DNA of 64,000 nt from Nitrososphaerota archaeon. GTDB lineage: Archaea > Thermoproteota > Nitrososphaeria > Nitrososphaerales > JACPRH01. How positions within the stretch are numbered: the stretch's first letter is position 1; the number at the start of each line of letters is the position of its first letter. The stretch covers positions 19,977 through 83,976 of the forward strand of contig JAMCPI010000017.1 in assembly GCA_023379805.1 (NCBI GenBank), in the 5' to 3' direction. The notes beneath the pieces are model-generated. The model saw only the letters and a list, made by a program, of their open reading frames with translations. It ran no database searches and was not told where the DNA came from. A program made the translations under genes and the position numbers. This document shows, piece by piece, positions 3,348-30,060 of this stretch.

Positions 3348-3406
3348 GTTGTCTACACATATAAAGTTGATGGTTATCAACTTCTATTGATATAGATGTA
3401 GACAAC
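3348..3406. promoter_or_regulatory. Nested palindromic operator in the divergent ArsR / 3451 promoter region
   Basis: The outer perfect 10-bp inverted repeat is GTTGTCTACA (3348-3357) / TGTAGACAAC (3397-3406). The inner repeat is AAGTTGAT-ggtt-ATCAACTT (3364-3383). It is located 28 bp upstream of the ArsR start codon. Confidence 0.5.
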
Positions 3407-3450
3407 TTTAATCTTCACTGGAGAAGCATACGCGGTGGTCTAGTTTTGCT

Positions 3451-4047: not shown

Positions 4048-4247
4048 AGAAGTAAGAGGGTTCCGCTGTGTCTCTTGCTGAAGTAGAAGACAGCGAGAGC
4101 GTCTAGTGCGTTTATGGCGCAGTGTATTGATGCTGTTACCGCTGCGTTATTCTTAGATGCGTTGGCTGCGTATTTCGCGACTTCCAGTATTTCTTCTGCT
4201 TTCTACAGATAGTTCTTGTAGAGTCCTTTATCGACTGGCCTTACCAT
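4005..4247 (-). pseudogene. Decayed HEPN-like toxin remnant downstream of the MNT gene
   Basis: The ATG at 4247 overlaps the MNT 3' end by 20 nt. The reading is MVRPVDKGLYKNYL, then an in-frame TAG (4205-4203), then KAEEILEVAKYAANASKNNAAVTASIHCAINALDALAVFYFSKRHSG. This is helical and HEPN-like, but no R-x4-6-H motif is present. The 3' end runs into the convergent gene 3451-4047. Confidence 0.35.
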
Positions 4248-10037: not shown

Positions 10038-10475
10038 TCACTCGATTAAGTAATCGCTTAACGAAGTGACAAGATGGGTATCCTTAGCTTTCGTATTTAG
10101 ATCGTCGTCCGCCGTAACCAATTTGCATCCGATATCCTCGGCTAGCTCTAGGTAAATTGCATCGTAGACCGTTATACCTAGTCTCTTGGCTGTTAACGTG
10201 GCCTTTGCGGTGGATTTAGATGACGGAGCGATGAAGGCTATGTCAAGTTGAAACAGCGCCTCAATATTACGTTCAAGGTCAACTTCAGTTATGTCTGATC
10301 TGTAGCGTAATGCATTGGCAACTTCGTAAATTATTAGCGCAGGTGCATAAAGCGTTAATCTACCCTCGATATGCTGATCTCTCAGAGTTAAAGCATCTTC
10401 AGAGTCCTGTTCAGGGACAAACCATTTTACCGCTACTGAAGCGTCAAGGACTAGGCTCTGCGACTCTGACGCCAT
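10038..10475 (-). CDS. vapC: PIN-domain ribonuclease toxin VapC
   Basis: 145 aa. It shows LVLDASVAVKW (the first acidic PIN residue), then ...YEVANAL..., then ...YDAIYLELA...LVTADDDL. Confidence 0.85.
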   Translation of the reverse strand: MASESQSLVLDASVAVKWFVPEQDSEDALTLRDQHIEGRLTLYAPALIIYEVANALRYRSDITEVDLERNIEALFQLDIAFIAPSSKSTAKATLTAKRLGITVYDAIYLELAEDIGCKLVTADDDLNTKAKDTHLVTSLSDYLIE

Positions 10476-10735
10476 TTCCGAATTACCTTGACGCTGGACC
10501 AGTCCTCAACCCGTTTAAGCTTCGCCCTATTACTGTCTATGACTTCGGCCGCCGTCTTCATCCTATCAATGTCGCGTATTCTTTTCTGATTTAGGCGTCC
10601 TCCTCCTTGTTGAGCCCAAGCCTTGAAGGCCATAGAGGCAGCTTGCCCTATCTTCAATCCCTCCTTGGACGCTCTGGACTTTAGTCTCCTGTAAGCCTCC
10701 TCGTCAACACCCTTTATCACTACATTCTCGCCCAA
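10451..10735 (-). CDS. vapB: RHH-type antitoxin (VapB-like), cognate to VapC 10038-10475
   Basis: This is the C-terminal 94 codons of the 196-aa track ORF. The reading ENVVIKGVDEEAYRRLKSRASKEGLKIGQAASMAFKAWA is a ribbon-helix-helix pattern. It overlaps vapC by 25 nt. The proposed internal TTG (10735) or GTG (10720) start is not proven. Confidence 0.5.
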   Translation of the reverse strand: MGENVVIKGVDEEAYRRLKSRASKEGLKIGQAASMAFKAWAQQGGGRLNQKRIRDIDRMKTAAEVIDSNRAKLKRVEDWSSVKVIRKWRQSRRA

Positions 10736-11041
10736 CGTCTGTGACCATGTGAAAACCGGCGCCTCAAGGTATAAAAAGTTATACTTCGCCGGTAGCTCGT
10801 AGCATAATGTTTTCTCGGCTGATTCTGAACGTGGATCGACGGGCCAAAACAGGAACAATTCGGACTCAAAGGGAATTATGTTACAATCTAGTCTTCCTTC
10901 TCCTTTGCCTTTTTTGAGAAGGTGGTACGCGAACTCCATTAGTGTGACGCTAGACATGTATTTCTCTGCATCCTCGATGTTTTTGAGCCACTTTAGAAAC
11001 TCCGGCTCAGAGAGAACATTGGTGTCAAGGAGTAATTTCAA
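10736..11041 (-). pseudogene. N-terminal PIN-domain fragment fused in-frame to the vapB-like ORF
   Basis: MKLLLDTNVLSE...SSVTLMEFAYHLLKK...IIPFESELF looks like the first half of a PIN domain. The distal acidic residues are missing, and the frame runs straight into the RHH segment. Confidence 0.4.
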
Positions 11042-12125: not shown

Positions 12126-14372
12126 ATGTTAGGTCATAAACTAACTCTATATATTGTACTAACCACTCTCTGCTTCAGCGCCTTTATTCCAGCGCTGGTA
12201 TACGCAGCACCACTAGGAATCACCGCTAAAGACTGGGAGCACACCAACGGCGGCTCATGGGCAGGCAACTACAGCCCACAAACCACCATCACCAAAGACA
12301 ACGTGAACAACCTCGAAGTGAAATGGATCTTTCCCGTCTCACAAAGGGCGCTTGGTCCGAAAGGCATCCAAGGTACAGGTCTCATCGAAGGAGCCAACAC
12401 TCCTCCGATTGTGAGAAACGGCAAGGTCTACGCCCAGACCAACTGGCTAAGACTCTACTCACTGGACGCAGCTTCAGGCAAACTGCTCTGGATGTACGAC
12501 TACTCCGCAAACGTCACCGCACTAACCACAAGGGATCCAGTCGTCATCGGCGGCAGCACCCATTCACACGGCTTCAGATACTGGGAGGCAGGCAACATGA
12601 TTCTGCAAGGCGGCCCACTCTGCGACTTCTACGGAGTCGACGCGGACACCGGCAAGCAGAAGTTCTACGTAGCAGATCTCTGCAACAACATTCCGGGAAG
12701 CATCTACAAGTACGTATCAATCATACCTGGCGGCGGACACGAAATCGCCACCTACGAGAAGGGTAAGCAGTTCATCATCTACTTCCCCGGCGGACGCGGC
12801 GGCGCAATTCTCGCAGGCAGAGCATTCGTCGCAGGAATCAACATGGACAACTACCAAACAGCGTGGCGGGTCTACCTGAACCCGCCTTACGACAAAGCAG
12901 AACCCGACTGGGCACTACAATACTGTGATGTAGGCTACTTCCCATACGGCGTATCCTGCAGTGACGTAGTCAAAATGTTTGGACAAGACGCCCTCAAGTA
13001 CGACTGGCAGAAGGAGCCGGGTAAGCCAATGAACGGCTTCAACGGCGTAAGCAGCGGCTGGGGTCAACCAGTAGTCGACGAAGACACAGGAACAGTCTAC
13101 ATCCCAAGTACAGGGAACCAAAGCCCCTACACAAACGTAACATTCAGGCCCGGACCGAACCTCTACGGAAGCACGATCTTAGCAATCGATCTGAACAAGG
13201 GCTCAATAAAATGGTGGCTACAACCACTTTCACACGATCCTTGGGACTATGACTGCAACTGGGGAGGCATCCTCGCAGACGTCCCAGGAACAGGCAAAGT
13301 CTTCGCCAAAGGCTGCAAAGAAGGCATCCTCTACGTAATGAACGCTGCAACCGGCAAACCGGTCTACTGGGTCGACATCATGAAAGACAACCCGCAACCA
13401 ATGGGAAAGAGAACCATAGAAGTACCTGACCCAAGCACCACCACACCTAAAGTCTTGTACAAGGACTCAACAGGAAAAGAATACAGCTACACCTTCGCCG
13501 AATGGATAAAGCTACCTTGGCCAGGATACCCAGACAACCCACAGATCCCTATGAACCCGATAATACTCAACGGCGCATTCCAAATCGACATGTCCTATGA
13601 CCCAGCCACCCAAACACTCTTCCACTACTACGCGTCAGGTGGACAAAGCATACTGAAGCAGAACCCGATCATCGAAGGAAAAGGCATCTGGAGCTCCAAA
13701 ACCGACAACCCACACAACACTACAATCGTAGCCCGAGACATAACAACAGGCAAAATCAAATGGGAGATACCCCCACTACCCTACAACGTCAGAGGACACC
13801 TACTCATAACAGGCGGAATGGTAGTCAGCCCATTGACAGACGGCTACATCCGATTCTACGACGAATCCACCGGCAAAACCCTACGTGAAATGAACCTCGG
13901 CTCCACACTCGTAACCGGAGTCACCACCGGACAAGACTCTAAAGGAGACCAGAAGATATTCGGCATCATCGGACAAACCACACAGATAGGCATAGTCGAA
14001 CCAGGCACCGTATTCGCACTCGGCCTATCCAGCAACAACGCAGGAGGCGGCGCAACCCCACAAACAACCACAGTCACCACAACCGCAACCACCACAACCA
14101 CAACAGTAAGCACCTCAGCTACAACAGTCACAACAACTGCACCGGCTAAAACCGTAACCACGACAAGCGCCACAACCGTCACCGCAACACAATCAGCTCA
14201 AACACAGACAAAGACTACAACAATCACCTCAAGCGCACCAGCACAAACCACCACCGTAACATCATCAATCACACAAAACACCGGACTACCATCGGAAGTC
14301 ACCTACGGAGCGGTCGGAGTAGCAGTAATAGCTCTGATTGCAGCTGCAGCACTGGCGATGCGGAAAAAGTAG
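12126..14372 (+). CDS. Secreted PQQ-dehydrogenase-like beta-propeller, Thr-rich stalk, C-terminal TM anchor (paralog 1, most divergent)
   Basis: The start is moved from 12069 to ATG 12126, because 12068-12100 is the promoter box shared with paralogs 2 and 3. The signal peptide ends ...FIPALVYAAP. Motifs present: NYSPQTTITKDNVNNLEVKWIFP, HGFRYWE, TGNQSPYTNVTFRPGPNLYGSTILAIDLNKGSIKWWLQPLSHDPWDYDCNW. The tail is GLPSEVTYGAVGVAVIALIAAAALAMRKK. Confidence 0.85.
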   Translation: MLGHKLTLYIVLTTLCFSAFIPALVYAAPLGITAKDWEHTNGGSWAGNYSPQTTITKDNVNNLEVKWIFPVSQRALGPKGIQGTGLIEGANTPPIVRNGKVYAQTNWLRLYSLDAASGKLLWMYDYSANVTALTTRDPVVIGGSTHSHGFRYWEAGNMILQGGPLCDFYGVDADTGKQKFYVADLCNNIPGSIYKYVSIIPGGGHEIATYEKGKQFIIYFPGGRGGAILAGRAFVAGINMDNYQTAWRVYLNPPYDKAEPDWALQYCDVGYFPYGVSCSDVVKMFGQDALKYDWQKEPGKPMNGFNGVSSGWGQPVVDEDTGTVYIPSTGNQSPYTNVTFRPGPNLYGSTILAIDLNKGSIKWWLQPLSHDPWDYDCNWGGILADVPGTGKVFAKGCKEGILYVMNAATGKPVYWVDIMKDNPQPMGKRTIEVPDPSTTTPKVLYKDSTGKEYSYTFAEWIKLPWPGYPDNPQIPMNPIILNGAFQIDMSYDPATQTLFHYYASGGQSILKQNPIIEGKGIWSSKTDNPHNTTIVARDITTGKIKWEIPPLPYNVRGHLLITGGMVVSPLTDGYIRFYDESTGKTLREMNLGSTLVTGVTTGQDSKGDQKIFGIIGQTTQIGIVEPGTVFALGLSSNNAGGGATPQTTTVTTTATTTTTTVSTSATTVTTTAPAKTVTTTSATTVTATQSAQTQTKTTTITSSAPAQTTTVTSSITQNTGLPSEVTYGAVGVAVIALIAAAALAMRKK

Positions 14373-14537: not shown

Positions 14538-16840
14538 ATGTTATCGAGCAAATATTGGATAACTAACTGTATATTACTTACCGTACTAACATTCAGCACA
14601 TTCGCACCTATACTAGCATACGCAGCACCCCTAGCAACTTCTGACAAGAACTGGCTGAACATGAACGGGAACACCTGGGCATGGAACTACAGCCCGGAGA
14701 CACAGATCAACAAGGATAACGTGAAGAACCTTGAAGTGAAATGGATATTCCCAATAACTAGCATAGCTCAAGCTGGCCCGAAAGGCTATGTATCACTTCA
14801 GCCTGGAGACGGTTCAAGCACACCGCCTATCGTCAGAAACGGCAAAGTCTACATCACGACCAATTACCAGATGATTATTGCACTAGACGGTAAAACAGGC
14901 AAGCAGCTGTGGAAAAACAGCTACGACATAAACCTCACTCAAGCAGTTCAGCGACTACCCTTAACCCCCGCAACCTTCGGCGGAGTACACAACCACGGCT
15001 TCAGATACTGGGAAACCGGAAACGCGCTCATCAACCGCGGCATAGCATGCGACTTCTACGGAGTTGACGCGGACACCGGCAAAACATCATTCTGGGTCCA
15101 AGACCTATGCAAAGACATCCCAGGCAACCTATACAAGTACAACACCGTCTACGCAGGCGCCAAATCCGGCAGCGTCGGAATATACGAGAAAGGTCACCAG
15201 TTCATCTACGTACTCTCAGGCGCAGTACACTCAAGCCTCTCACCCGCAGGCGATGGAAGACATGTCACAATGGGCATCGACACTACAACAAAGAACGTCA
15301 TATGGAGAGTCTTCAGCGCCCCACCCCAAGACGTTCCAACCAAGGACTGGGCACTCCAAGAATGCAGCATAGGATACTTCCAGACACACCCATGCAGCGA
15401 TGTAGCAGCCAAGAACCGAGCCGGGTTAGAATGGGACTGGGCATTACCCGACGCAGCACCAGTCAAGTGGGCTGGCGTAACCGCTAACTGGGGCCAGCTT
15501 GTCGTCGACGAAGACACCGGAATAGTCTACACTAATACAGGCAACCAGGGACCATACTCAAACATGTCAATGACACCTGGACCAAGACTCTACGGTTCAA
15601 CCATAATGGCCATCGACGTGAACGCAGGCAAACGCATATGGTGGCTACAACCCTTCCCACATGATCCCTATGATTATGACTGCAACTGGAGCGGAATACT
15701 AGCTGATGTTAAGGGCTAGGTAAAGTCTACATGAAGGGATGCAAGGAAGGCATTCTGTATGCAATGGACGCTAAGACAGGTAAGCCGGTGTGGACAGCGG
15801 ACGTAGTAAAGGAACAGGTAACATGGGGACAGATCCAAGCTGCCGCAGCCGAACCCCAGCCGAAAGGCATCCGGGCATATCAGCCAGATCCATATAGCTT
15901 CCACGATATGCGTGAGTGGAACTGGATCAGCTACCCAGCCGCAGCCCCAGGCCAAGCCGGCGAGCGCTGCAACCTTCCCTGCGGTCTATATCCGCACTGG
16001 TCAAACGGACTCTTCGGAACAGACCTCTCATACGATCCGGATACCAACACGCTATTCCAATACGCATCTGGACAACAGGTAGCCTTGCTTAAAGAATTCG
16101 GAATGAAGGATGGCGCAAGCCTCATGAGCACCAAAGGATACTCAATATCTAACTCAACCATAGTAGCCCGCGACGCAGCCACTGGCAACGTCAAGTGGAC
16201 ATGGTTCTACAAGTTCAGCACCCAGCGCAGCCACCTAGTTGTAACCAGTGACATGCTTCTTACAGGCTTCACAGACGGCTACATGCGCTTCTTCGACAAA
16301 AGCTCAGGCAAACTCCTCCGCGAAATGAACATCGGCACCCACATGGTGAACGGCTTCACCACAGGCCAAGACTCAGACGGCAAACAGAAACTATTCGGAG
16401 TTATAGGAGTAGGGGACGCAACCGCAGCCCGAGTATATCCAAGCCCAACAGCAGGAGGTGCAGTAATCGCACTAGGACTCTCAGAAACAGCCGGAGGCGG
16501 CGCAGCCCAAACCACCACAGTCACAACCACCTCAGCCACAACAATCACAACCGCAACCACCAGCACCATAACTACAACATCAGCCACAACAGTTACCAGC
16601 GCAACCACTAACACCGTAACCACAACAAGCGCCACAACCGTCACAGCAACACAATCAGCTCAAACACAAACTAAGACAACCACCGCAACGGTTACCTCCA
16701 ATGCGCCAGCTCAAACCACAACAGTAACCTCACAGGTCACTCAAACCACCGGACTACCCTCAGAAGTCACCTATGCAGCAGTCGGCATAGCTGTAATAGC
16801 TATCGCAGGCGCAGCATTCCTAGCAATGCGGAAGAAGTAG
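14538..16840 (+). pseudogene. PQQ-dehydrogenase-like paralog 2, interrupted by a 1-nt frameshift in a G-run
   Basis: ORFs 14538-15719 and 15731-16840 are the N- and C-halves of one paralog. At 15711-15722, aagGGGctaggt has three Gs. A fourth G would read K-G-L-G-K-V-Y-M-K-G-C-K-E-G, matching the family consensus. This could be a true pseudogene, a sequencing error or a slippage site. Confidence 0.6.
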
Positions 16841-17011: not shown

Positions 17012-19225
17012 ATGTTATCAAGCAAATCTTGGATAACTAACTGTATAATACTTGTCTTATTGACGTTCAGCACATTCGCAACATCACTAGCATACGCAGC
17101 ACCCCTAGCTAACACCGAGAAGGACTGGCAGTACGTCGGCGGAAACTCTTGGGGTTGGCACTACGGCCCACAAACACAGATCAACAAGAACAACGTCGAC
17201 CAGCTCGAAGTAAAATGGCTCTTCCCGATAGGCGGCCAATCGTCGGCGCCCACAGGAATAAAAGCCATACCCGGAATCAGCGACGGAACAGGCACACCCC
17301 CAATAGTCAGAGACGGATCAGTATACGTATTGAACGATTGGGGAACCATGTACGCTGTAGATGCCGGGACGGGCAAACAAAAATGGTCACATGACTATGT
17401 CATCAACATGGACGAATTACGCAAGAAAATACCGGTGGCGCTCGGAGGACTCATGCATACCCATGGATTCAGATACTGGGAAGGTGGAGACGCACTACTA
17501 GCCTATGGTCTGGCGTGCGACTTCTACGGTGTTGACGCCAAGACCGGCAAGGAGAAGCTATGGGTCAAGGATATCTGTAAGGATGTCCCTGGAAACATCG
17601 GTCAATACAGACCTAGCCCATCCAACACCAATATCATCGGAACCTACGAGAAGGGACGCCAATTCATCATTGTCCTGCCAAGCAGGATTCACAGCAACGT
17701 CGCAGAAGTAGCTCCACAGGAATCTAGACACGTCACAATGGGCATAAGCATGGACGCGCCGTACAAAGTATTATGGCGAGTCTTCAGCTCACCACCTCAA
17801 GACGTTCCAACTAAGGACTGGGCTCTACAAGAGTGTAGCATCGGTTTCTTCCGAGAAATACCCTGCAGCGAAGTTGCAAAGGTGAACCAGAAAGGCCTTG
17901 AATGGGACTGGTCGCTTCCGGAACAAAAGCCAGGATATTTCGCCGGTGTCACAGCCAACTGGGGTCAACCCATAGTTGACGAAGACACAGGCATCATCTA
18001 CACCAACACAGGCAACCAAGGACCATACTCAAACGTATCACTAACACCAGGACCACGCCTCTACGGCAGTACCATCATGGCTATCGATATGAATGCGGGC
18101 AAACGTGTCTGGTGGCTACAGCCATGGCCGCATGACTTCTACGACTACGACTGCAACTGGAGCGGAATACTTGCAGAAAGCTCAACCCTCGGCAAAGTCT
18201 ACACATACGGCTGCAAGGAAGGAAGGTACTTCGTGATGGACGCAGCTAATGGTAAACCGAAGCTGGTGGTCGATGTCCGTGGCGACCAGTTAGCTAGAGG
18301 ACAGATATCAGCAGATCCATTCAAAATGGTCTACCAACCAGATCCTAAGAGCTTCTCCGATATGAGAGAATTCAACTGGATCAGCTGGCCTGCTACAAAG
18401 CCGGGTGAGCAGGGTAAGTTCTGTACCTTGCCTTGCACAGTATATCCGAACTGGACCAACGGGATATTCCAGTCGGACAGAGCGTACGACCCTGAGACAC
18501 AGACATACATACTCTACGAAGGAGCCCTCTGGGCACGAGTATTAGCGGAGCACTCCTACTTCCCAGGTGAGCGTAACTACAACGGCGGAAACTTGTTCAC
18601 AACCCAGCGTTCTCAACCCGTCAACACCACGCTAGTTGCCAGAGACCTCGCAACCGGCAAGGTGAAGTGGACATGGTTCTACCAATACAGCTCGCAGCGT
18701 GCCGCTCCGATTGTATCAGGTGGCATGGTCATCACAGGCTGGCCAGACGGTCTCATGAGGTTCTTCGACAAGGACTCAGGCAAACTCATTCGCCAACTGA
18801 CAATCGGCTCACCGATAATAGTTCAACCTACAATCGGCAAAGACTCATCAGGCAATTCAAAGATATTCCTAGTCGCAGGTGCATCAGGCCCCATGGGAGC
18901 TGGAGATGCTAGATACGGAATGCAAGGGCTAACCAGAGTTCCAGGAACACTCATCGCCATAGGCCTCACAGAAAAGGCGGCGACAGAAATCAAAACAAGC
19001 ACAGTCACAACTACTCAGAGCACAACTCTCACAACAACCTCAGCAACCACTCAGACACAGACTACAACAGTCACCTCAAACGCACCAGCTCAGACACAGA
19101 CTACAACAGTAACCTCACAGGTTACTCAAACAACAGGTCTGCCTTCTGAAGTCACTTACGCGGCAGTCGGTATAGCTGTAATAGCCATCATCGCAGCAGC
19201 AGTACTCGTGATACGGAAGAAGTAG
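17012..19225 (+). CDS. Secreted PQQ-dehydrogenase-like beta-propeller with stalk and C-terminal anchor (paralog 3)
   Basis: 737 aa. The signal peptide ends ...FSTFATSLAYAAP. Motifs present: HGFRYWEGGDA, TGNQGPYSNVSLTPGPRLYGSTIMAIDMNAGKRVWWLQPWPHDFYDYDCNW. A Thr-rich linker is followed by the tail GLPSEVTYAAVGIAVIAIIAAAVLVIRKK. Confidence 0.9.
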   Translation: MLSSKSWITNCIILVLLTFSTFATSLAYAAPLANTEKDWQYVGGNSWGWHYGPQTQINKNNVDQLEVKWLFPIGGQSSAPTGIKAIPGISDGTGTPPIVRDGSVYVLNDWGTMYAVDAGTGKQKWSHDYVINMDELRKKIPVALGGLMHTHGFRYWEGGDALLAYGLACDFYGVDAKTGKEKLWVKDICKDVPGNIGQYRPSPSNTNIIGTYEKGRQFIIVLPSRIHSNVAEVAPQESRHVTMGISMDAPYKVLWRVFSSPPQDVPTKDWALQECSIGFFREIPCSEVAKVNQKGLEWDWSLPEQKPGYFAGVTANWGQPIVDEDTGIIYTNTGNQGPYSNVSLTPGPRLYGSTIMAIDMNAGKRVWWLQPWPHDFYDYDCNWSGILAESSTLGKVYTYGCKEGRYFVMDAANGKPKLVVDVRGDQLARGQISADPFKMVYQPDPKSFSDMREFNWISWPATKPGEQGKFCTLPCTVYPNWTNGIFQSDRAYDPETQTYILYEGALWARVLAEHSYFPGERNYNGGNLFTTQRSQPVNTTLVARDLATGKVKWTWFYQYSSQRAAPIVSGGMVITGWPDGLMRFFDKDSGKLIRQLTIGSPIIVQPTIGKDSSGNSKIFLVAGASGPMGAGDARYGMQGLTRVPGTLIAIGLTEKAATEIKTSTVTTTQSTTLTTTSATTQTQTTTVTSNAPAQTQTTTVTSQVTQTTGLPSEVTYAAVGIAVIAIIAAAVLVIRKK

Positions 19226-19569: not shown

Positions 19570-20067
19570 ATGGATGCTTCAGACATCGATATTGTAAGGA
19601 TGTTTCGAGCGGAGCTTGCTCAGCTACAAGTCAAGCTTCTCGATATGGGTGACGCTGTTGAGCAGGAACGACTAAGAGACGCTATTAATACTCTCGAAGA
19701 CGCTAGCGTAATACTGAACTCGCACCTTAAATTCGAAGAGGCGTTGTTTCCCAAACTCAAACCCTACTTGGGCAGCTACATGGATCAAGCCACAGAGGAG
19801 CATGACGAAGCTAAGAAAGCAGTCAAACGTCTAAAAGACATCATATCCGATGAAAACCAGACACAAGAAACCAGAGTAGAAGCCGTATGGTGGAACCTAA
19901 GATGGCTCATCGACCACACAACAAACTGCGACTGCCTCGCACTAATGATGGAAAAACTCAGCGGAGACGAGTTACACCAACTCAGACAAAAATTCAAAGA
20001 AGCCAAGCAGGCCAACCCACCACTACTAAAGAAATCAGCCCGCGCAAAACAATCAAACCTAACCTAG
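19570..20067 (+). CDS. Hemerythrin-like (HHE cation-binding) domain protein
   Basis: 165 aa. HLKFEEALFPKL, TEEHDEAKKAVKRL and DHTTNC...LSGDELHQL resemble the H..EE..lfP / EH / H...E repeats of hemerythrin-like domains. The last motif is degenerate. Confidence 0.55.
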   Translation: MDASDIDIVRMFRAELAQLQVKLLDMGDAVEQERLRDAINTLEDASVILNSHLKFEEALFPKLKPYLGSYMDQATEEHDEAKKAVKRLKDIISDENQTQETRVEAVWWNLRWLIDHTTNCDCLALMMEKLSGDELHQLRQKFKEAKQANPPLLKKSARAKQSNLT

Positions 20068-20328: not shown

Positions 20329-22461
20329 ATGAAGAATAGTAGTAAGCATCAACCGACACTACTGTCTATGCTCGTAATTCTGGCATTCAGCACATTCATG
20401 CCAGCACTAGCCTTCGCAGCACCTACGGGAGACAACGGCAAAGACTGGATGAACACCAACGGCAACAGCTGGGCATGGAATTATAGTCCACAAACCCAGA
20501 TCAACAAGAACAACGTGCAGAACCTTGAAGTGAAATGGGTGTTCCCACTCGCATCCAAGGCTCTGGCGCCAGCAGGAATCCAAGCGGCCGGGATCGGTGA
20601 AGGAACAACAACGCCCCCTATCGTCAGAAACGGAATAGTCTACGTCATTACCAGCTTCATGAAGGCATACGCCATCGACGCAAAGACCGGCAAGCAGATC
20701 TGGACCAATGATTACAGCATCGACATAGAAGCAGCGAAGCAGAGGCTACCGTTAATGATCGCCGGATCCGTTCACAAGCACGGCTTCCAGTACTGGGAAA
20801 GCGGCGACGCGATAATCAACCACGGCTTAGCCTGTGACTTCTACGGCCTTGACGCCAAGACTGGCAAAGAGAAATTCCACGTCAACGATCTCTGCAAAGA
20901 CGTACCTGGATCGCTCTACAAGTATCTGGCACGTCGGCCCGGCGCAGAGCCTAGCATAGGAATCTATGAGAAAGGCCACCAATTCATCTACGTCCTAGCT
21001 GGTTACATGCACAGCACACTTTCAGCCCCAGATGCACGCCACGTCACAATGGGCATTGACATGGACAGCAAACAGATTAAATGGAGAGTCTTCAGTTCAC
21101 CACCACAAGATCAACTCAGCAAAGACTGGGCACTACAGGAGTGCGACATCGGATACTTCAGAACCACCTCCTGCAAAGATGTAGCAGCAGTAAACCAGAA
21201 AGGCTTAGAGTGGGACTTCGCGCTACCCAACGAAAAACCAAGCATGTGGGGTGGAGTGACAGCCAACTGGGGACAGGCAGTAATTGATGAAGACACAGGA
21301 ATAATGTATACTCAGACTGGCAATCAAGGACCGTATTCAAACATGACACTAGTACCAGGACCACGCCTCTACGGAAGCACCATAATGGCCATCGACCTGA
21401 ACCAAGGCAAACGTGTCTGGTGGCTACAGCCATTCCCACACGATCCATATGACTACGACTGCAACTGGAGTGGAATGTTGATCAACAGCAAAGCTCTGGG
21501 CAAAGTCTACGTCAAGGGCTGCAAGGAAGGCATCTTCTACGTGATAGATGCAAAGACAGGTCAACCAAAGTACAGCGTAGATGTGATTAAAGACCAAGTT
21601 GCAAGAGGACAAGTAAGCGCAGCTGCAGCTAAATCTCCGCCTGACGGCATCCGAGCATACATGCCTGATCCAAAGAGCTACCATGACATGAGGGAGTGGA
21701 ACTGGATCAGCTATCCAGCCACTAAGCCAGGTGAGAAAGGAGAGCACTTCACGCTACCTGCATCGATATATCCACACTTCCAGAACGGCATTTTCCAGAC
21801 AGACATGTCCTACGATCCTGAAACAGAAACAATGATCTACTACGAAGGCGCACTCCAAGTAGACGTATTATCTGAACGCCCCTACATACAAGGCGCAGAT
21901 CTCTTCGTAGTCAAGGGATATCCGAAAGCCAATACTACCATAGTAGCGAGGGACATAACCACCGGCAAGGTGAAGTGGACTTGGTTCTATCAACTCAGCA
22001 ACCAGAGAGCAGCCATGGTCGTATCTGGCGGCACAGTCTTCTCCGGGTTTACTGACGGCACGATGAAGTTCTTCAACAAAGACACAGGTGCAGATCTTGC
22101 TAAGATAAACGTCGGAGCACCAGTTCTCGTCGAACCAACAATCGGTACAGACTCAGATGGCAACTCAAAGATATTCGCAGTAGTCGGATCTACATCGATT
22201 TCAGTAGGACCACAGTACGGAGACCCCGGGCCACAAATACCCGGAACACTCATCGCCCTCGGACTGAGAGAGACACCAGTAGCTGAAGTCAAGGTCACAA
22301 CAGTCACAACCAGCACGACAATCACCACTACTCAAGCAGTTACAACCACCCAGTCGATCACAGGAACAAGCGGATTACCAGCAGAAATAACCTACGCGGC
22401 AGTTGCAGTAGCAATAATCGTCAGCATCGCCGCAGCAGTATTAGCAATGCAGAAGAAATAA
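20329..22461 (+). CDS. Secreted PQQ-dehydrogenase-like beta-propeller with stalk and C-terminal anchor (paralog 4)
   Basis: 710 aa. The signal peptide ends ...FSTFMPALAFAAP. Motifs present: HGFQYWESGDA, PHDPYDYDCNWSG. The stalk is short. The tail is GLPAEITYAAVAVAIIVSIAAAVLAMQKK. Confidence 0.9.
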   Translation: MKNSSKHQPTLLSMLVILAFSTFMPALAFAAPTGDNGKDWMNTNGNSWAWNYSPQTQINKNNVQNLEVKWVFPLASKALAPAGIQAAGIGEGTTTPPIVRNGIVYVITSFMKAYAIDAKTGKQIWTNDYSIDIEAAKQRLPLMIAGSVHKHGFQYWESGDAIINHGLACDFYGLDAKTGKEKFHVNDLCKDVPGSLYKYLARRPGAEPSIGIYEKGHQFIYVLAGYMHSTLSAPDARHVTMGIDMDSKQIKWRVFSSPPQDQLSKDWALQECDIGYFRTTSCKDVAAVNQKGLEWDFALPNEKPSMWGGVTANWGQAVIDEDTGIMYTQTGNQGPYSNMTLVPGPRLYGSTIMAIDLNQGKRVWWLQPFPHDPYDYDCNWSGMLINSKALGKVYVKGCKEGIFYVIDAKTGQPKYSVDVIKDQVARGQVSAAAAKSPPDGIRAYMPDPKSYHDMREWNWISYPATKPGEKGEHFTLPASIYPHFQNGIFQTDMSYDPETETMIYYEGALQVDVLSERPYIQGADLFVVKGYPKANTTIVARDITTGKVKWTWFYQLSNQRAAMVVSGGTVFSGFTDGTMKFFNKDTGADLAKINVGAPVLVEPTIGTDSDGNSKIFAVVGSTSISVGPQYGDPGPQIPGTLIALGLRETPVAEVKVTTVTTSTTITTTQAVTTTQSITGTSGLPAEITYAAVAVAIIVSIAAAVLAMQKK

Positions 22462-22829: not shown

Positions 22830-25013
22830 ATGAAGAATGATAGTTATTATCGAGCAACACTAATGTCAATACTCGTAATCCTCGCATTCAGCACTTTCAC
22901 ACCAACACTCGCATTCGCAGCACCCCTCGCCAATAACGACAAAGACTGGCAGTACGTTAACGGTAACAGCTGGGCATGGAACTACAGTCCACAGACACAG
23001 ATCAACAAGGACAACGTCGGCAACCTTGAAGTCAAGTGGATATTCCCTCTTGGAAGCAAAGCGTTAGCGCCGGCAGGCATGCAGGCAATACAAGGGTTTG
23101 CTGAGGGCACAACCACCCCACCGGTTGTTAGAGATGGAACAGTCTTCGTCAACAGCAACTGGGGTAGAATGTACGCCGTTGACGCCGCAACAGGCAAACA
23201 GAAATGGACCTACGACTATGTGCTCAACTTCAGTGATGTACGCAAGAAAATACCCGTGGAAATGGGCGGCATCATACACGACCACGGCTTCAGATACTGG
23301 GAGTCCGGAGATGCACTACTCTCCTACGGTCTAGCCTGTGACTTCTACGGCGTAGATGCAAAGACTGGGAAACAAAAGTTCTGGGTCAAAGACCTCTGCC
23401 TAGATGTACCTGGAAACCTTGGCATATACAGACCTAGTCTAGCCAACAGCGCAGTCATAGGCACCTACGAAAAGGGCCGACAGTTCATCGTCGTGTTCCC
23501 AAGCAGAATCCACAGCAACGTAGCTCAGGTAGCACCGCGCGACTCGAGACACGTCACAATGGGCATCAGCATGGACGCACCATACAAAGTAATGTGGCGA
23601 GTCTACAGCTCTCCACCGCAGGATCAACCCGTCAAAGACTGGGCGATCGCAGAATGTAGCAGCGGTTACTTCCGAGACATACCCTGTACCGAGGCACTAG
23701 CGGCTAACCGCGCAGGACTCGAATGGGACTTCGCACTCCCCAATCAGCCAATCGGCTGGTACGGCGGAGTCACAGCAAACTGGGGTCAACCTGTAGTTGA
23801 CGAAGATACAGGCCTGCTCTACACCCAGACAGGCAACCAAGGACCATACTCCAACATGACACTAGCACCAGGACCAAGACTCTTCGGCAGCACCATAATG
23901 TCCATAGACATGAACGCAGGCAAACGCATCTGGTGGCTACAACCATTCCCCCATGACCCGTATGACTATGACTGCAACTGGAGCGGATTGCTCACAGAAA
24001 ACCCGACGCTTGGCAAGGTCTATGTGTACGGCTGCAAGGAAGGAAGATACTTCGCGATTGATGCAGCTACAGGTAAACCGAAGCTAACTGTCGATGTCCG
24101 TAAAGACCAGTTCGCAAGAGGACAGATCTCTAGCGACCCGTATAAACTCCTCTATGAGCCTGATCCAAGAAGCTACTACGACATGAGGGAATGGAACTGG
24201 ATAAGCTACCCCGCAAAGAAAGTAGGCGAGCAAGGCAAGTTCTGCACCCTACCCTGCACAGTGTACCCGGACTTCTATAATGGCATCTTCGCAACAGACA
24301 GAGCGATAGACCCGCAGACACAAACATACTACCTCCACGAAGACGCGTTGACAGCAAGAATTGACAAGGAACACTCTTACTTCCCAGGAGATGCAAACTA
24401 TGCTGCAGGCAACCTGTTCACCACCTCCAGACCTCTGCCTACCAATAGCACAATCGTCGCCAGAGACCTAGCCACTGGTAAAGTAAAGTGGGTATGGTTC
24501 TTCCCCTACAGTCACCAACGCGCAGCCCCAGTGGTCACCGGAGGCATGGTGTTCAGTGGCTTCACAGACGGATACCTACGCTTCCTAGACAAGGACTCAG
24601 GCAAAATGCTAAACGAGATCGTCGTCGGATCGCCTATCGTAGTCCAACCAACAATCGGCAAAGACTCTCAAGGCAACTCAAAGATATTCGCCATCGTCGG
24701 CGCAACCCGCCTCGCCGGGGCAGCTAACTTCGGACTAGGTGGACAAAGTGATGTACCCGGAACACTAATAGCTCTCGGACTATCCCAGAAAGTCGCAACC
24801 GGAACGACAACAACTGTTACTACCACTTCCGCCACAACTGTTACTAGCACATCAGCTACAACAGTAACCACAGCTGCACCAGCTCAAACTGTGACTTCAT
24901 CGGTCACACAAACCGCGACCACAGGTCTACCAGCAGAAGTCACCTACGGGGCAGTCGGAGTAGCAGTAATAGCTCTGATTGCAGCAGCAGTACTAGTAAT
25001 GCGTAAGAAGTAA
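22830..25013 (+). CDS. Secreted PQQ-dehydrogenase-like beta-propeller with stalk and C-terminal anchor (paralog 5)
   Basis: 727 aa. The body is closest to paralog 3 (shared blocks include IGTYEKGRQFI, SRHVTMGISMDAPYKV, GCKEGRYF). PHDPYDYDCNWSG is present. The tail is GLPAEVTYGAVGVAVIALIAAAVLVMRKK. Confidence 0.9.
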   Translation: MKNDSYYRATLMSILVILAFSTFTPTLAFAAPLANNDKDWQYVNGNSWAWNYSPQTQINKDNVGNLEVKWIFPLGSKALAPAGMQAIQGFAEGTTTPPVVRDGTVFVNSNWGRMYAVDAATGKQKWTYDYVLNFSDVRKKIPVEMGGIIHDHGFRYWESGDALLSYGLACDFYGVDAKTGKQKFWVKDLCLDVPGNLGIYRPSLANSAVIGTYEKGRQFIVVFPSRIHSNVAQVAPRDSRHVTMGISMDAPYKVMWRVYSSPPQDQPVKDWAIAECSSGYFRDIPCTEALAANRAGLEWDFALPNQPIGWYGGVTANWGQPVVDEDTGLLYTQTGNQGPYSNMTLAPGPRLFGSTIMSIDMNAGKRIWWLQPFPHDPYDYDCNWSGLLTENPTLGKVYVYGCKEGRYFAIDAATGKPKLTVDVRKDQFARGQISSDPYKLLYEPDPRSYYDMREWNWISYPAKKVGEQGKFCTLPCTVYPDFYNGIFATDRAIDPQTQTYYLHEDALTARIDKEHSYFPGDANYAAGNLFTTSRPLPTNSTIVARDLATGKVKWVWFFPYSHQRAAPVVTGGMVFSGFTDGYLRFLDKDSGKMLNEIVVGSPIVVQPTIGKDSQGNSKIFAIVGATRLAGAANFGLGGQSDVPGTLIALGLSQKVATGTTTTVTTTSATTVTSTSATTVTTAAPAQTVTSSVTQTATTGLPAEVTYGAVGVAVIALIAAAVLVMRKK

Positions 25014-25455: not shown

Positions 25456-27615
25456 ATGATGTCTATAAGATCACATAAATCTATGATATTGACTGTTCTA
25501 GCGATACTCGCATTCAGCACATTCCTACCCGCACTCGCATTCGCAGCACCAACAGGCGATAACGGCAAAGACTGGATGAACACGAATGGAAACTCCTGGG
25601 CACAGAACTACAGCCCACAAACACAGATCAACAAGAACAACATCAACAACCTAGAGGTGAAATGGCTCTTCCCGCTCGCATCCAAGGGCTTAGCTCCAAA
25701 AGGAATCCAAGCGGCCGGCATCGGCGAAGGAACCACTACACCACCAATTGTAAGAGACGGAAGAGTTTACGTGATCACCAGCTTCATGAAGACCTACGCA
25801 ATCGATGCAAAAACAGGTAAACAGGTCTGGACACACGACTACGACATTGACATCGAAGCAGCAAAGCAGAGATTACCTCTAATGATAGCTGGATCAGTTC
25901 ACAAACACGGCTTCCAGTACTGGGAGGGCGGAGACGCCATCATTAACCACGGACTAGCCTGCGACTTCTATGCACTTGACGCCAAAACCGGCAAGGAGAA
26001 GCTCCGCGTCGAAGACCTATGCAAAGACGTGCCTGGATCACTCTACAAGTATCTAGCGCGTCGACCCGGCGCAGAGCCCAGTATCGGGATCTACGAGAAG
26101 GGTCACCAATTCATCTATGTCTTAGCAGGCTACATGCATAGCAGCCTTACCGCACCAGACGCACGGCACGTCACCATGGGAATCGACATGGACAGCAAGA
26201 ACATCAAATGGAGAGTCTTCAGTGCTCCACCGCAAGATGTTCCAACTAGAGACTGGGCCCTACAGGAATGTGACATAGGCTACTTCCGCGACATTCCATG
26301 CAAAGACGTAGCGGCCAAGAACCTGAAAGGGCTCGAATGGGACTGGGCTCAACCAGGTGAAAAACCAAGCATGTGGGGTGGAGTAACTGCTAACTGGGGC
26401 CAAGCAATAGTTGACGAAGACACAGGCATCATGTACACCAACACAGGTAACCAAGGACCATACTCAAACATGTCAATGACACCCGGACCTCGTCTCTACG
26501 GAAGCACAATCATGGCAATCGACCTAAACAAAGGTAAGAGAGTTTGGTGGCTACAACCCTTCCCGCACGATCCATACGACTATGACTGCAACTGGAGCGG
26601 AATACTAGCTGAAGTCAAGGGTGTTGGCAAAGTCTACGCCAAAGGCTGCAAGGAGGGTATCCTCTACGTGGTTAACGCAGCTACGGGTAAGCCATTGTAC
26701 AAGGTGGATGTGAGAGATGATCAACTAGCAAGAAGGCAGATATCTACGCTAAGCAACAAGGCGTACGCACCTGATCCGATGAGCTACCACGATCTTAGGG
26801 AGTGGAACTGGATTAGCTACCCAGCCACAAAGCCAGGTGAGAAAGGGGAACACTGCACTCTACCATGCTCAATCTATCCAGCCTTCATGAACGGCATCTT
26901 CCAAACCGACATGTCCTATGACCCTGAAACCCAAACATTGATACTCTACGAAGGCGCACTGCAAGTAAACATCCTATCTGAACACCCATATGCCCAAGGC
27001 GCAGAGCTCTTCAGAACCAGCATGTATCCAACTGCGAACACCACAATCGTAGCTAGAGATCTAGCCACTGGCAAAGTGAAGTGGACTTGGTTCTACCAAT
27101 TGAGCAACCAGAGAGCGGCCATGGTAGTATCAGGAGGTACAGTATTCACCGGATTCACTGATGGACAAATGCGCTTCCTAGACAAGGACACAGGCAAGGA
27201 ACTAGGCAAGCTAAGCCTCGGATCACCAGTCCTCGTTCAACCAACTATAGGTCAAGATACAGATGGTAACTCAAAGATATTCGCGGTTGTCGGATCCACA
27301 TCACTCGCCTCAGGACCGCAGTACGGCAATCCAGGACCAACGATCCCAGGAACACTAGTCGCCATCGGCCTGAGTGACAAGGCAGCCCAAATCGTCACCA
27401 GTACATCTACAACTACCGCAACCACTACTGCAATCTCTAGCACCACAGCAACTACAACAGTCACATCAAGTGCACCGGCACAAACTATAACCACATCAAT
27501 CACCCAAACTCAAACCGAGACCTCAGGTCTACCATCAGAAGTAACCTATGCAGCAGTCGGCATAGCTGTAATAGCTATCGCAGGCGCAGCATTCTTAGCA
27601 ATGCGGAAGAAGTAG
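25456..27615 (+). CDS. Secreted PQQ-dehydrogenase-like beta-propeller with stalk and C-terminal anchor (paralog 6)
   Basis: The start is moved from 25375 to ATG 25456. It lies 38 nt after ACTTATATT, as in paralog 7, within the shared TTTCGAAAtTTATG context. The signal peptide ends ...FSTFLPALAFAAP. PHDPYDYDCNWSG is present. The tail is GLPSEVTYAAVGIAVIAIAGAAFLAMRKK. Confidence 0.88.
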   Translation: MMSIRSHKSMILTVLAILAFSTFLPALAFAAPTGDNGKDWMNTNGNSWAQNYSPQTQINKNNINNLEVKWLFPLASKGLAPKGIQAAGIGEGTTTPPIVRDGRVYVITSFMKTYAIDAKTGKQVWTHDYDIDIEAAKQRLPLMIAGSVHKHGFQYWEGGDAIINHGLACDFYALDAKTGKEKLRVEDLCKDVPGSLYKYLARRPGAEPSIGIYEKGHQFIYVLAGYMHSSLTAPDARHVTMGIDMDSKNIKWRVFSAPPQDVPTRDWALQECDIGYFRDIPCKDVAAKNLKGLEWDWAQPGEKPSMWGGVTANWGQAIVDEDTGIMYTNTGNQGPYSNMSMTPGPRLYGSTIMAIDLNKGKRVWWLQPFPHDPYDYDCNWSGILAEVKGVGKVYAKGCKEGILYVVNAATGKPLYKVDVRDDQLARRQISTLSNKAYAPDPMSYHDLREWNWISYPATKPGEKGEHCTLPCSIYPAFMNGIFQTDMSYDPETQTLILYEGALQVNILSEHPYAQGAELFRTSMYPTANTTIVARDLATGKVKWTWFYQLSNQRAAMVVSGGTVFTGFTDGQMRFLDKDTGKELGKLSLGSPVLVQPTIGQDTDGNSKIFAVVGSTSLASGPQYGNPGPTIPGTLVAIGLSDKAAQIVTSTSTTTATTTAISSTTATTTVTSSAPAQTITTSITQTQTETSGLPSEVTYAAVGIAVIAIAGAAFLAMRKK

Positions 27616-27919: not shown

Positions 27920-27948
27920 AATTATGATGAATGTTTGTTTCGAAAATT

Positions 27949-30060
27949 ATGAAACATCTGAAGCCATATAAAGTGACTATACTGTCTATTCTCATAATCC
28001 TCTCATTCAGCACATTCCTACCCGCACTAGCATACGCAGCACCCCTAGCAAACACCGAGAAGGACTGGCAGTATGTTAACGGAAACAGTTGGGGACAGAA
28101 CTATAGTCCCGAGACCCAGATCAACAAGAACAACGTAGGTAACCTTGAAGTGAAGTGGGTCTTCCCCTTCGGCAGTAAAGACTTGGCGCCAGCAGCCATA
28201 AGGGCCCTAGGTGCACAAGAAGGTGTCAACACCCCGCCAGTCGTCCGCAACGGCGTGGTCTACGTAACCAGCAACTACCTCAAAACCTACGCAATCGACG
28301 CAAAGACCGGCGCACAGCTATGGACACATGACTACACCTTCGACGTGGCAGCCGTCAACAAAAGCCTGCCTTGGGCGTGGGGTGGCTTACTCAGCTCGCA
28401 CCTCCACGGTATTAGGTACTGGGAGGGCGGCGACGCCATCCTCTACGAAGGAATGGCCTGCGACATCGTAGCTATAGCTGCGAAGACAGGTAAAGAAAGC
28501 TTCCGAATCAACGATCTCTGCAAGAACATCCCTGGAAGCATCTACAAATACTTCGCCAGCCCGAACGCTCAGGCCAGCCTCGGAACCTACGAGAAGGGTA
28601 AGCAATTCATCATAGTCCTACCCGGTCAAATGCACTCCACAATCTACGCGGGTGACTCGCGACACGTCACGATGGGCATCGACATGAATAGCAAACAAGT
28701 TCTCTGGAAAGTCTTCAGCTACCCACCTCAAGACAAGCCTACTAAAGACTGGGCAACACAAGAGTGCGATATAGGCTACTTCCAAACCTACACATGCAAA
28801 GAGGTAGCGGCAAAGAACCCGTCTCAGCTCGAATGGGACTGGGCTCAGCCTAACCAGCCACCCAACATCTACGGCGGAGTCACAGCTAACTGGGGACAAA
28901 TGATCGTAGATGAAGACACAGGCATCCTATACACTCAGACAGGCAACCAAGGACCATATACAAATGTATCAACTACACCTGGACCAAGACTCTACGGCAG
29001 CACCATCATGGCCATAGACATGAATTCAGGCAAACGCATATGGTGGCTACAACCCTTCCCGCACGATCCATACGACTATGACTGCAACTGGGGAGGCATA
29101 CTAGCTGAAACCAAGTCAATCGGTAAGGTCTACATGAAGGGATGCAAAGAAGGCAGACTCTACGTAATGAACGCGAAGACAGGCCAGCCAATCTACATGA
29201 AAGATGTGCTCCAAGAGCAGATTTCTATCGGCCAAATATCTCCACTCGCTGGAAAGGAGCCTAAGGACGGAGGAGTCAAGTTCCACCTCACAGATCCATT
29301 TAGCGATGACATGAGGGGTTGGAAGTTCGTGACAGACGGCAGAATATGCACGGCTCCATGCAAGCTCTATCCAAGCTACTTCAACGGCATCTTTGCAACA
29401 GACATGACCTATGACCCTACAACCGATACTCTCTACCACTACGCCAACGCATTCATGACATCAATTACTGCGGAGCTTCCAGTTGTCCCAGGTAACAACG
29501 TAGTTGCCACCAAGGACTACTCTCCAACAAATGCCACAATCATTGCTAGAGACGCATCCACAGGAGCAATAAAGTGGAACTACCTCTACAAGACTAGCGC
29601 TCAACGCTCCGCATTGGTAGTGACAAGCGACCTACTCTTCTCAGGCTTCACAGACGGACAAATGAAATTCCTCGACAAATCCACCGGCAAACTACTCAGC
29701 ACAGTCAACCTAGGAGCACCTATCGCAATCGCTCCAACAACAGGCCAAGACTCTGACGGCAAACAGAAGATATTCGTAATCGCAGGCATAACCACCCTCC
29801 CACAGGCCTTCGGTCAAGCCTATGGCGCAACCGGAGCAATCCAACCAGGTGTCCTAGTCGCACTCGGACTATCAGATAAAGCAACAACAGGAGGATCAGT
29901 AACTACCGTAACGACAGCAACCACCCAAACAATTACAACATCAATAACCAACCAAGTCACACAGACCTCAGAAACAATAGGCCCGATCACCTACGGCGCA
30001 ATAGCAGTAGCTGTTATTGCAATCATCGCCGCAGCAGTCCTAGTGATGAGAAAGAAGTAG
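27949..30060 (+). CDS. Secreted PQQ-dehydrogenase-like beta-propeller with short stalk and C-terminal anchor (paralog 7)
   Basis: The start is moved from 27931 to ATG 27949 on conserved promoter spacing. The signal peptide ends ...FSTFLPALAYAAP. Motifs present: HGIRYWEGGDA, PHDPYDYDCNWGG. The tail variant is TIGPITYGAIAVAVIAIIAAAVLVMRKK. Confidence 0.88.
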   Translation: MKHLKPYKVTILSILIILSFSTFLPALAYAAPLANTEKDWQYVNGNSWGQNYSPETQINKNNVGNLEVKWVFPFGSKDLAPAAIRALGAQEGVNTPPVVRNGVVYVTSNYLKTYAIDAKTGAQLWTHDYTFDVAAVNKSLPWAWGGLLSSHLHGIRYWEGGDAILYEGMACDIVAIAAKTGKESFRINDLCKNIPGSIYKYFASPNAQASLGTYEKGKQFIIVLPGQMHSTIYAGDSRHVTMGIDMNSKQVLWKVFSYPPQDKPTKDWATQECDIGYFQTYTCKEVAAKNPSQLEWDWAQPNQPPNIYGGVTANWGQMIVDEDTGILYTQTGNQGPYTNVSTTPGPRLYGSTIMAIDMNSGKRIWWLQPFPHDPYDYDCNWGGILAETKSIGKVYMKGCKEGRLYVMNAKTGQPIYMKDVLQEQISIGQISPLAGKEPKDGGVKFHLTDPFSDDMRGWKFVTDGRICTAPCKLYPSYFNGIFATDMTYDPTTDTLYHYANAFMTSITAELPVVPGNNVVATKDYSPTNATIIARDASTGAIKWNYLYKTSAQRSALVVTSDLLFSGFTDGQMKFLDKSTGKLLSTVNLGAPIAIAPTTGQDSDGKQKIFVIAGITTLPQAFGQAYGATGAIQPGVLVALGLSDKATTGGSVTTVTTATTQTITTSITNQVTQTSETIGPITYGAIAVAVIAIIAAAVLVMRKK

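Follow-up and report, generated by a model that had tools for sequence, protein, structure and literature searches.

A conserved C-terminal tail behind a Thr-rich stalk as a candidate lineage-specific surface-anchoring or sorting domain in non-marine Thaumarchaeota

The 64-kb stretch of Nitrososphaerota archaeon contig JAMCPI010000017.1 analyzed here (referred to below as the window) encodes eight pyrroloquinoline quinone (PQQ) beta-propeller dehydrogenase paralogs, all on the plus strand. Each paralog ends in a Thr-rich stalk followed by the same tail of ~30 residues, which consists of a GLPxE[VI]TY motif, ~18 Ala/Val/Ile residues, and R-K-K. In all likelihood, this tail is a portable anchoring module that is kept by selection. 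We see about an even chance of the broader reading, in which the tail serves a soil and groundwater clade of Thaumarchaeota as a portable, lineage-specific domain for C-terminal sorting and surface anchoring, processing included.

Between the propeller and the tail, the stalks run for 32 to 89 residues, 42 to 48% of them Thr, and the tails conform to the pattern [ST]GLP[SA]E[VI]TY[AG]A[VI][GA][IV]A[VI]I...AAA.L..[RQ]KK, with the stop codon directly behind it. The original prediction had singled out the span 18967-19225, which comprises the stalk, the tail, and the stop codon of paralog 3, and had attributed the same Thr-rich stalk and conserved tail to all eight paralogs. Both attributions hold: a hidden Markov model (HMM) built from 49 tails and scored on the 1136 six-frame open reading frames (ORFs) of the window gives 52.8 to 65.6 bits on exactly the eight paralog ORFs, including that of paralog 2, which is frameshifted (see below), and no more than 4.3 bits on the next best one. 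The variant motif ascribed to paralog 7, SETIGPITY, is present as described (SETIGPITYGAI). The secreted protein encoded at 38484-39194, which had been said to end in the same style, shares the Thr run, the transmembrane segment, and the basic end but not the motif (3.8 bits on the tail profile). In the AlphaFold2 model of paralog 3 (67-sequence alignment; mean predicted local distance difference test score [pLDDT], 82.9), the propeller is modeled confidently, its blocks mostly at pLDDT values above 85, and stalk residues 658 to 711 have values of 31 to 36, are devoid of secondary structure, and are predicted to be disordered. A single predicted helix, residues 712 to 736, starts directly after P711, with S-E-V-T-Y forming its first turns, and the motif abuts the hydrophobic stretch with no spacer in between. 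When plotted on a helical wheel at 100 degrees per residue, T715, A718, A722, A725, and A729 all lie inside a sector of ~80 degrees and could together make up one small-residue face of the helix.

A search with the full-length protein returned 245 homologs; among the best 120 of these 245, nearly all complete ones retain the tail at the C terminus, at identities down to 46%. In the alignment of 118 of them (46 to 77% identity), the motif residues G709, L710, P711, and E713 are conserved in 91, 77, 78, and 80% of the sequences, T715 and Y716 in 97 and 99%, the helix residues A718, A722, A725, and A729 in 90, 99, 95, and 94%, and R735 in 93%. The mean fraction of the most frequent residue is 0.76 in the tail (the last 30 residues), compared with 0.66 in the propeller and 0.55 in the signal peptide, which serves as the natural control, being a hydrophobic segment free of such constraint. 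The signature Pro shifts or is lost in some homologs (ETIGPITY, GLQPEITY, GLSPTITY, and GMSSTVTY), and the ETIGP variant of paralog 7 recurs in P0005 to P0007, P0020, and P0027. Since the position of this Pro varies, the real invariant core appears to consist of T-Y and the Ala positions of the helix.

Such uniformity would also be seen if the tail were simply the C terminus of one PQQ family, conserved merely through recent duplication or gene conversion. The tandem paralogs do adjoin each other, and paralogs 2 and 6 share 97% of the amino acids and 93% of the nucleotides of their tails, though the genes differ elsewhere. In addition, the non-PQQ ORF at 2377-3093 of the related locus L018, compared along with L019, carries a stalk and tail that match residue for residue those of the PQQ protein L013/P0112 (TTTAPGSTQTTTVVQTQTETSGLPAEVTYAAIGVAVIALIAAAVLVMRKK), which is a sign of recombination carrying the cassette from gene to gene. 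Judged from these sequences, some local exchange of the tail cassette does occur. However, Nei-Gojobori counts over all 28 paralog pairs give for the tail a mean proportion of synonymous differences (pS) of 0.51 and of nonsynonymous differences (pN) of 0.16 (pN/pS, 0.31), compared with 0.67 and 0.29 (0.43) for the propeller and 0.62 and 0.32 (0.52) for the stalk. The tail pairs differ at 4 to 14 synonymous codons per 30 (5 to 14 in most pairs), and the pN value is half that of the propeller, so that the tail, as read from these counts, is nearly saturated at silent sites and yet tighter in protein sequence than the enzyme that carries it. This synonymous divergence argues that the conservation results from purifying selection and not from recent gene conversion. 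Retention of the tail in distant homologs and its presence in at least 13 non-PQQ representatives (see below) point in the same direction. Gene conversion or recent duplication as the main cause of the conservation is refuted by the synonymous divergence together with the non-PQQ carriers, and an explanation confined to the PQQ family is very improbable. A separate observation is a degenerate remnant of a stalk and tail (…SRLPAEVTCAAVAVAIIAIVGAGSSTSNA) located between two intact PQQ paralogs in locus L007 (10813-11052, equal to P0166), which is probably a decayed gene end.

To look for further carriers, a check that the original prediction had proposed for the proteome, the tail profile was run exhaustively with hmmsearch at E<=1e-3 over 1.84 billion cluster representatives. 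The search returned 46 representatives, with E values from 2.5e-13 to 5.7e-4. All of them end within 7 residues of the match, so that the tail lies at the extreme C terminus in every one. By BLAST against the propeller, 20 of the 46 are PQQ enzymes or fragments thereof, at least 13 are clearly non-PQQ proteins, and the remaining 13 are too short to classify. The non-PQQ carriers include PEGA-domain proteins, recognized by Pfam (P0124, P0155, and P0160) or from their own sequences (P0149 and P0152); a 941-residue alpha/beta-hydrolase (Abhydrolase/Palm_thioest; P0143); a Kelch-repeat protein (P0148); a protein with a SlaB-like N-terminal domain (P0140, E=1.7e-8); small secreted proteins of 76 to 93 residues (P0002, P0126, P0131, P0139, and P0158); and two proteins with no Pfam match (P0161 and P0164). 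The tail thus occurs on six or more unrelated types of secreted protein, signal peptides are visible in the full-length non-PQQ carriers, and the tails of these carriers yield the same consensus, TGLPAEVTYAAVAIAVIAIIAAAVL..R.. The occurrence of the tail on non-PQQ families indicates that it is a portable module. Other C-terminally anchored secreted proteins have unrelated ends, both in the window (38484-39194 and 42912-43835) and in locus L005 (9602-10648), which argues that the tail represents a distinct class rather than a feature that transmembrane segments generally have in these organisms.

The carriers come from soil and groundwater metagenome-assembled genomes (MAGs) and metagenome contigs. 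In the groundwater MAG JACPRH01, 25 distinct tail-bearing ORFs are found in ~170 kb, one of which encodes a non-PQQ repeat protein. A scan of 185,579 species-representative genomes, based on a 6-sequence alignment and exact matching of two peptide patterns, GLP[SA]E[VI]TYA and A[VI][AG][VI]A[VI]IAI[IVL], confirmed the tail in at least one MAG, JACPRH01, and a metagenome scan with the same two patterns confirmed at least five short loci; exact patterns understate the spread, so these figures are lower bounds. A word-indexed search with a 44-residue tail alignment found two short proteins and missed the window's own proteins, which makes it unusable for carrier counts. The N-terminal domain of a PEGA carrier, used as a query for orthologs with known CTERM signals, gave no matches.

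In its general anatomy, the tail has the layout of the tripartite C-terminal sorting domains of the Haft class: it occupies the extreme C terminus of proteins with signal peptides, apart from one weaker internal copy (see below), and it occurs in many copies across unrelated families, 8 of them in the window and 25 in the JACPRH01 loci. However, no sorting-domain model in NCBIfam or Pfam reaches its cut-off on the tail, in scans of both the full proteins and the isolated tails, in agreement with the earlier impression that the motif lies outside PGF and PEF. The highest sub-threshold scores could be taken to place the tail as a divergent form within a catalogued signal, such as PGF-CTERM/ArtA, PEF-CTERM/ArtC, PEFG-CTERM/thaumarchaeosortase, or an LPXTG-like one. 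PGF_CTERM (TIGR04126) scores 8 to 17.7 bits against a cut-off of 24.5, with the matches that would speak for membership at 10.9 to 17.7; Rumino_NPXTG, up to 18.2 against 23.5; LAVTG, 17.4 against 27; LPXTG_anchor (TIGR01167), 12.6 to 13.7 against 15.9; and PEF-CTERM (TIGR03024), 10.5 to 13.8 against 23. The series L-P-x-E-x-T also loosely recalls LPXTG, and PEFG-CTERM proteins do exist in marine ammonia-oxidizing Thaumarchaeota (PMC6593220). Nevertheless, every one of these scores is below the curated cut-off, and PEFG-CTERM gives no match even at E<=10. The PGF, PEF, and LPXTG alignments begin at model positions 6 to 12, i.e., in the transmembrane and basic part (only positions 10 to 28 are aligned for PGF_CTERM), and those to NPXTG and LAVTG begin at positions 3 to 10. 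The tail contains no PGF or PEF motif and, in place of an LPXTG-type arrangement, has neither TG nor a spacer. Cys is absent from the eight window tails and from the consensus of 110 tails, which excludes the MYXO-/CGP-CTERM class. Membership in PGF-, PEF-, PEFG-, or LPXTG-CTERM was rejected on the curated cut-offs, and the reading of the tail as a divergent form of one of these catalogued signals is unlikely. On sequence grounds, the tail adds another lineage-specific member, for now an orphan, to the CTERM-type domains; it resembles PGF-CTERM at least in architecture and fails the test of every catalogued signal.

The closest architectural parallel is the PGF-CTERM/archaeosortase A system, whose substrates include the S-layer glycoprotein of Haloferax volcanii and which likewise acts on Sec-exported surface proteins with an upstream Thr-rich region of the O-glycosylated type and has a short motif abutting the transmembrane helix, a basic end, and many unrelated carriers per genome (PMC6098224). 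The transmembrane and basic half of the tail aligns weakly to TIGR04126. In contrast to P-G-F, the signature of the tail is GLPxE[VI]TY with an invariant T-Y (11 to 18 bits against the cut-off of 24.5), its hosts belong to a thaumarchaeal lineage and not to halophiles or methanogens, and no ArtA homolog was identified in the window and ~270 kb of related loci; cleavage and lipidation of the tail are predictions. PEFG-CTERM, found in the same phylum, is likewise tripartite and sits at the C terminus of surface proteins (PMC6593220), but the motif of the tail is different and without detectable similarity, and the tail carriers are from soil and groundwater MAGs. The term "thaumarchaeosortase" had no occurrence in the literature searched; a model of this name in TIGRFAMs/NCBIfam is the partner of PEFG-CTERM. 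The CGP-CTERM/archaeomyxosortase MrtA pair of Thermococcales and other orphan CTERM signals are, like the tail, short and lineage restricted, with a motif that abuts the transmembrane segment and 30 Thr/Ser-rich residues upstream, and they were defined in silico before any enzyme (10.1101/2023.06.07.544157). Unlike them, with their invariant Cys and their pairing with CPBP proteases (PF02517), the tail has no Cys, and no gene for such a protease was seen near its carriers.

The mechanism that we favor starts with export of the carrier via a Sec-type signal peptide, its ectodomain being followed by the disordered stalk and the helix with R-K-K. After export, the helix and R-K-K would serve as a stop-transfer signal, and a stalk, probably O-glycosylated, would hold the ectodomain above the membrane on its outer face. 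Because specific residues are kept across unrelated carriers, one shared membrane component may recognize the tail; most likely, this would be a dedicated intramembrane processing enzyme that removes the helix and leaves a lipid-type anchor, as ArtA does for PGF-CTERM. Where the cutting enzyme is embedded in the membrane, the signal motif adjoins the transmembrane segment, archaeal signals of this kind have Thr/Ser-rich regions upstream, and residue-level conservation across unrelated carriers marks the processed signals in characterized cases (10.1101/2023.06.07.544157). The tail shares all three features, which is why processing is favored; by this analogy, the chance that an intramembrane enzyme processes the tail is close to even. 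A more specific proposal is offered tentatively, as it falls somewhat short of even odds: the tail could be the recognition signal of an undescribed sorting system of non-marine Thaumarchaeota, in which a dedicated intramembrane enzyme cuts near GLPxE[VI]TY, attaches the glycosylated stalk to a lipid, and tethers dozens of PQQ dehydrogenases and other exoproteins. If so, the enzyme would be a divergent archaeosortase or a member of a new class, operating in cells with tetraether membranes, and the tethered PQQ dehydrogenases, which have the DYD motif (see below), would possibly be lanthanide dependent.

The principal alternative is a type I anchor that is never cleaved: the tetraether membrane would retain the helix, whose Ala stripe (spacing 4-3-4) would pack on another helix, and GLP-S-E-V-T-Y would amount to no more than an N-cap for the helix and an aromatic residue at the interface. 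The partner helix could belong to another copy of the tail, to an S-layer or SlaB-like anchor, or to a membrane redox partner. The original prediction had named a "plain tail-anchor" as the fallback, which is a misnomer, given that the proteins have signal peptides: an N-terminal hydrophobic signal peptide ending in A-[YF]-A-A-P is found in all eight paralogs and rules out a Get3-type tail-anchored protein, so that the proper alternative is a retained type I stop-transfer anchor. Several observations weigh against processing and fit a retained anchor. The modeled helix begins directly after P711, which allows GLP-S-E to be read as an ordinary N-cap; the small residues from T715 to A729 share one narrow arc; and the signature Pro is variable in position. 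A weaker internal copy of the module, the only non-terminal one, is found in locus L006 (16895-17818; NGLPTEIAYTTAGIAVIAIIIAAIVVTRRN, 32.6 bits), where it is preceded by a Thr stalk and followed by ~140 residues that resemble an extracellular beta-sandwich. This ORF may be a gene fusion, and since ArtA still acts on one PGF signal that gene fusion has made internal (PMC6098224), it is not decisive.

The absence of a candidate enzyme also belongs on this side. The original prediction had noted that the window has no archaeosortase gene, and the ORF scans (~30 larger ORFs, none of them sortase-like) and a hydropathy screen bear this out. In the window and the related loci together (~330 kb), no archaeosortase, exosortase, rhomboid, or CPBP-like candidate was found, nor did the hydropathy screen of all their ORFs reveal a sortase-like protein of ~300 residues with 7 or 8 transmembrane segments; the multi-transmembrane proteins detected were only AglB, an ABC-2-type permease, a cation-efflux-like protein, a small membrane protein, and a YdjM-like protein. 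The neighborhoods of the non-PQQ carriers P0143, P0140, P0124, and P0148 contain no PF09721, PF02517, rhomboid, or sortase family member. The YdjM-like protein (PF04307, weak match; 215 residues), encoded at 2945-3592 of locus L002 directly upstream of the hydrolase carrier P0143, does not recur near other carriers, has no NCBIfam match, and is a weak lead as a processing-enzyme candidate. Sortase genes are usually unlinked to those of their substrates, so the local absence of an enzyme is weak evidence. On the wider scale, a 2018 review found archaeosortases only in a subset of Euryarchaeota and none in Sulfolobales (PMC6098224).

SlaB, the S-layer stalk protein of these archaeosortase-less Sulfolobales, has as its anchor a plain transmembrane segment at the C terminus (PMC6098224). 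It resembles the tail carriers in its type I topology, single C-terminal transmembrane segment, and extended stalk, and P0140 has an N-terminal domain similar to that of SlaB. Still, the SlaB anchor is not a conserved module found on unrelated enzymes, and its stalk is a coiled coil and not a Thr-rich disordered linker. For a retained anchor in general, a single partner fitting PQQ enzymes, PEGA proteins, a hydrolase, a Kelch protein, and small proteins alike is difficult to name; the plain anchors of the same genomes are not conserved; and conservation of residues across unrelated carriers marked processed signals in every characterized case (10.1101/2023.06.07.544157). A retained anchor is a credible explanation that we nevertheless consider less likely than processing. 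As for the candidate sorting signal postulated originally, its signal-like anatomy and its portability are upheld, whereas the sortase-like enzyme that should accompany it was not found in ~330 kb.

Surface attachment in archaea beyond halophiles and methanogens is largely unexplained, and archaeosortases have been placed in a subset of Euryarchaeota (PMC6098224). The tail provides a sharp marker, searchable by HMM, for the surface proteins of an uncultured soil and groundwater Thaumarchaeota clade, including the expanded PQQ dehydrogenases that are thought to drive a heterotrophic lifestyle (PMC7300363, PMC10640624). Should the tail be processed, it would represent a new pairing of signal and enzyme, open to discovery by phylogenetic profiling; should it be retained, the invariant Ala stripe would point to a helix-helix partner in the tetraether membrane. 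In either case, the enzymes would be placed on the outer face of the membrane, and the tail would be suitable for inclusion in annotation model sets.

The paralogs match PF01011 with E values from 1e-30 to 4e-41, over the gathering score, as is expected of eight-bladed PQQ propellers. On TIGR03075 they score 136 to 170 bits against a cut-off of 480, which places them outside the characterized methanol/ethanol subfamily; the nearest solved sequences to paralog 3 are the quinoprotein ethanol dehydrogenases 6zcv and 6zcw. A DYD motif, located in paralog 3 at residues 373 to 383 (PHDFYDYDCNW), is present across all eight paralogs; D378 and D380 are invariant in the 118 homologs, and Y379 is 97% conserved. 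This motif has been tied to lanthanide-dependent dehydrogenases (PMC7300363). The expanded PQQ dehydrogenases of the non-ammonia-oxidizing Thaumarchaeota (HMT and Gagatemarchaeaceae) are likewise multicopy and colocalized, with signal peptides, predicted transmembrane segments, and, in some of them, the DYD motif (PMC7300363, PMC10640624), which is (nearly) invariant in the present family. Those studies mention only "predicted transmembrane domains" and do not describe a conserved tail or non-PQQ carriers. The coordinates of the paralogs, their tails, and aglB are listed in Table 1.

Table 1. Positions in the window of the PQQ paralogs, their C-terminal elements, and the nearby oligosaccharyltransferase gene
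Feature	Position	Strand	Basis
PQQ paralog 1 gene	12126-14372	+	
Tail of paralog 1, TGLPSEVTYGAVGVAVIALIAAAALAMRKK	14280-14369	+	Tail HMM, 60.6 bits
PQQ paralog 2 gene, frameshifted in the window assembly	14538-16840	+	
Tail of paralog 2, TGLPSEVTYAAVGIAVIAIAGAAFLAMRKK	16748-16837	+	Tail HMM, 64.5 bits
PQQ beta-propeller dehydrogenase paralog 3, 737 aa (signal peptide, 8-bladed propeller, stalk, tail)	17012-19225	+	PF01011, E=1e-30
Thr-rich stalk of paralog 3, 55 aa, 47% Thr	18968-19132	+	Composition; AlphaFold2 disorder
Tail of paralog 3, TGLPSEVTYAAVGIAVIAIIAAAVLVIRKK	19133-19222	+	Tail HMM, 61.9 bits; AlphaFold2 helix 712-736
PQQ paralog 4 gene	20329-22461	+	
Tail of paralog 4, SGLPAEITYAAVAVAIIVSIAAAVLAMQKK	22369-22458	+	Tail HMM, 52.8 bits
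PQQ paralog 5 gene	22830-25013	+	
Tail of paralog 5, TGLPAEVTYGAVGVAVIALIAAAVLVMRKK	24921-25010	+	Tail HMM, 58.8 bits
PQQ paralog 6 gene	25483-27615	+	
Tail of paralog 6, SGLPSEVTYAAVGIAVIAIAGAAFLAMRKK	27523-27612	+	Tail HMM, 61.8 bits
PQQ paralog 7 gene, variant tail	27931-30060	+	
Tail of paralog 7, variant motif, SETIGPITYGAIAVAVIAIIAAAVLVMRKK	29968-30057	+	Tail HMM, 53.9 bits
AglB/STT3 oligosaccharyltransferase (context only)	40241-42427	-	PF02516, E=2.6e-28
PQQ paralog 8 gene	45244-47367	+	
Tail of paralog 8, TGLPSEVTYAAVGIAVIAIIAAAVLVMRKK	47275-47364	+	Tail HMM, 65.6 bits

The window is 99.995% identical to contig JAMCWH010000017 from the Thaumarchaeota MAG GCA_023481325.1, in which the gene for paralog 2 is intact. 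In the window, a single T is deleted at ~15718 (GGGCTTAGG in JAMCWH010000017 reads GGGCTAGG here), which produces a TAG codon and a frameshift; this is either a pseudogene in the strain or an assembly error.

A conserved N-x-T sequon and a nearby aglB gene, both named in the original prediction, are indeed present. As N-x-[ST], the sequon precedes [IL][IV]ARD (N538 in paralog 3) in all eight paralogs and in 116 of the 118 homologs, and AglB could be the enzyme that N-glycosylates it. OST3/OST6 is weakly matched (E=3.4e-4) by the ORF at 51338-51805, which encodes a small membrane protein.

Between aglB and the gene for paralog 8, an ORF at 42912-43835 (plus strand) encodes a protein of 307 residues with a signal peptide, at least four CxxCH haem-c motifs (CFICH, CMRCH, CGACH, and CFNCH), a further HCH, and a C-terminal Gly-rich transmembrane segment followed by RRYM. 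It has no Pfam or NCBIfam match; it may be a multihaem cytochrome c and could act as the electron acceptor of the PQQ enzymes. The interval between paralogs 3 and 4 holds a gene for a hemerythrin-like protein (PF01814, E=4.5e-7), at 19570-20067 on the plus strand. The PQQ array is flanked by toxin-antitoxin-type genes, with a weak AbiEii match and PIN and MazE/PrlF matches (31634-32314 and 10451-11041, both on the minus strand, and 3026-4407 of locus L001), and by an N6-methylase-like gene at 5048-7999.

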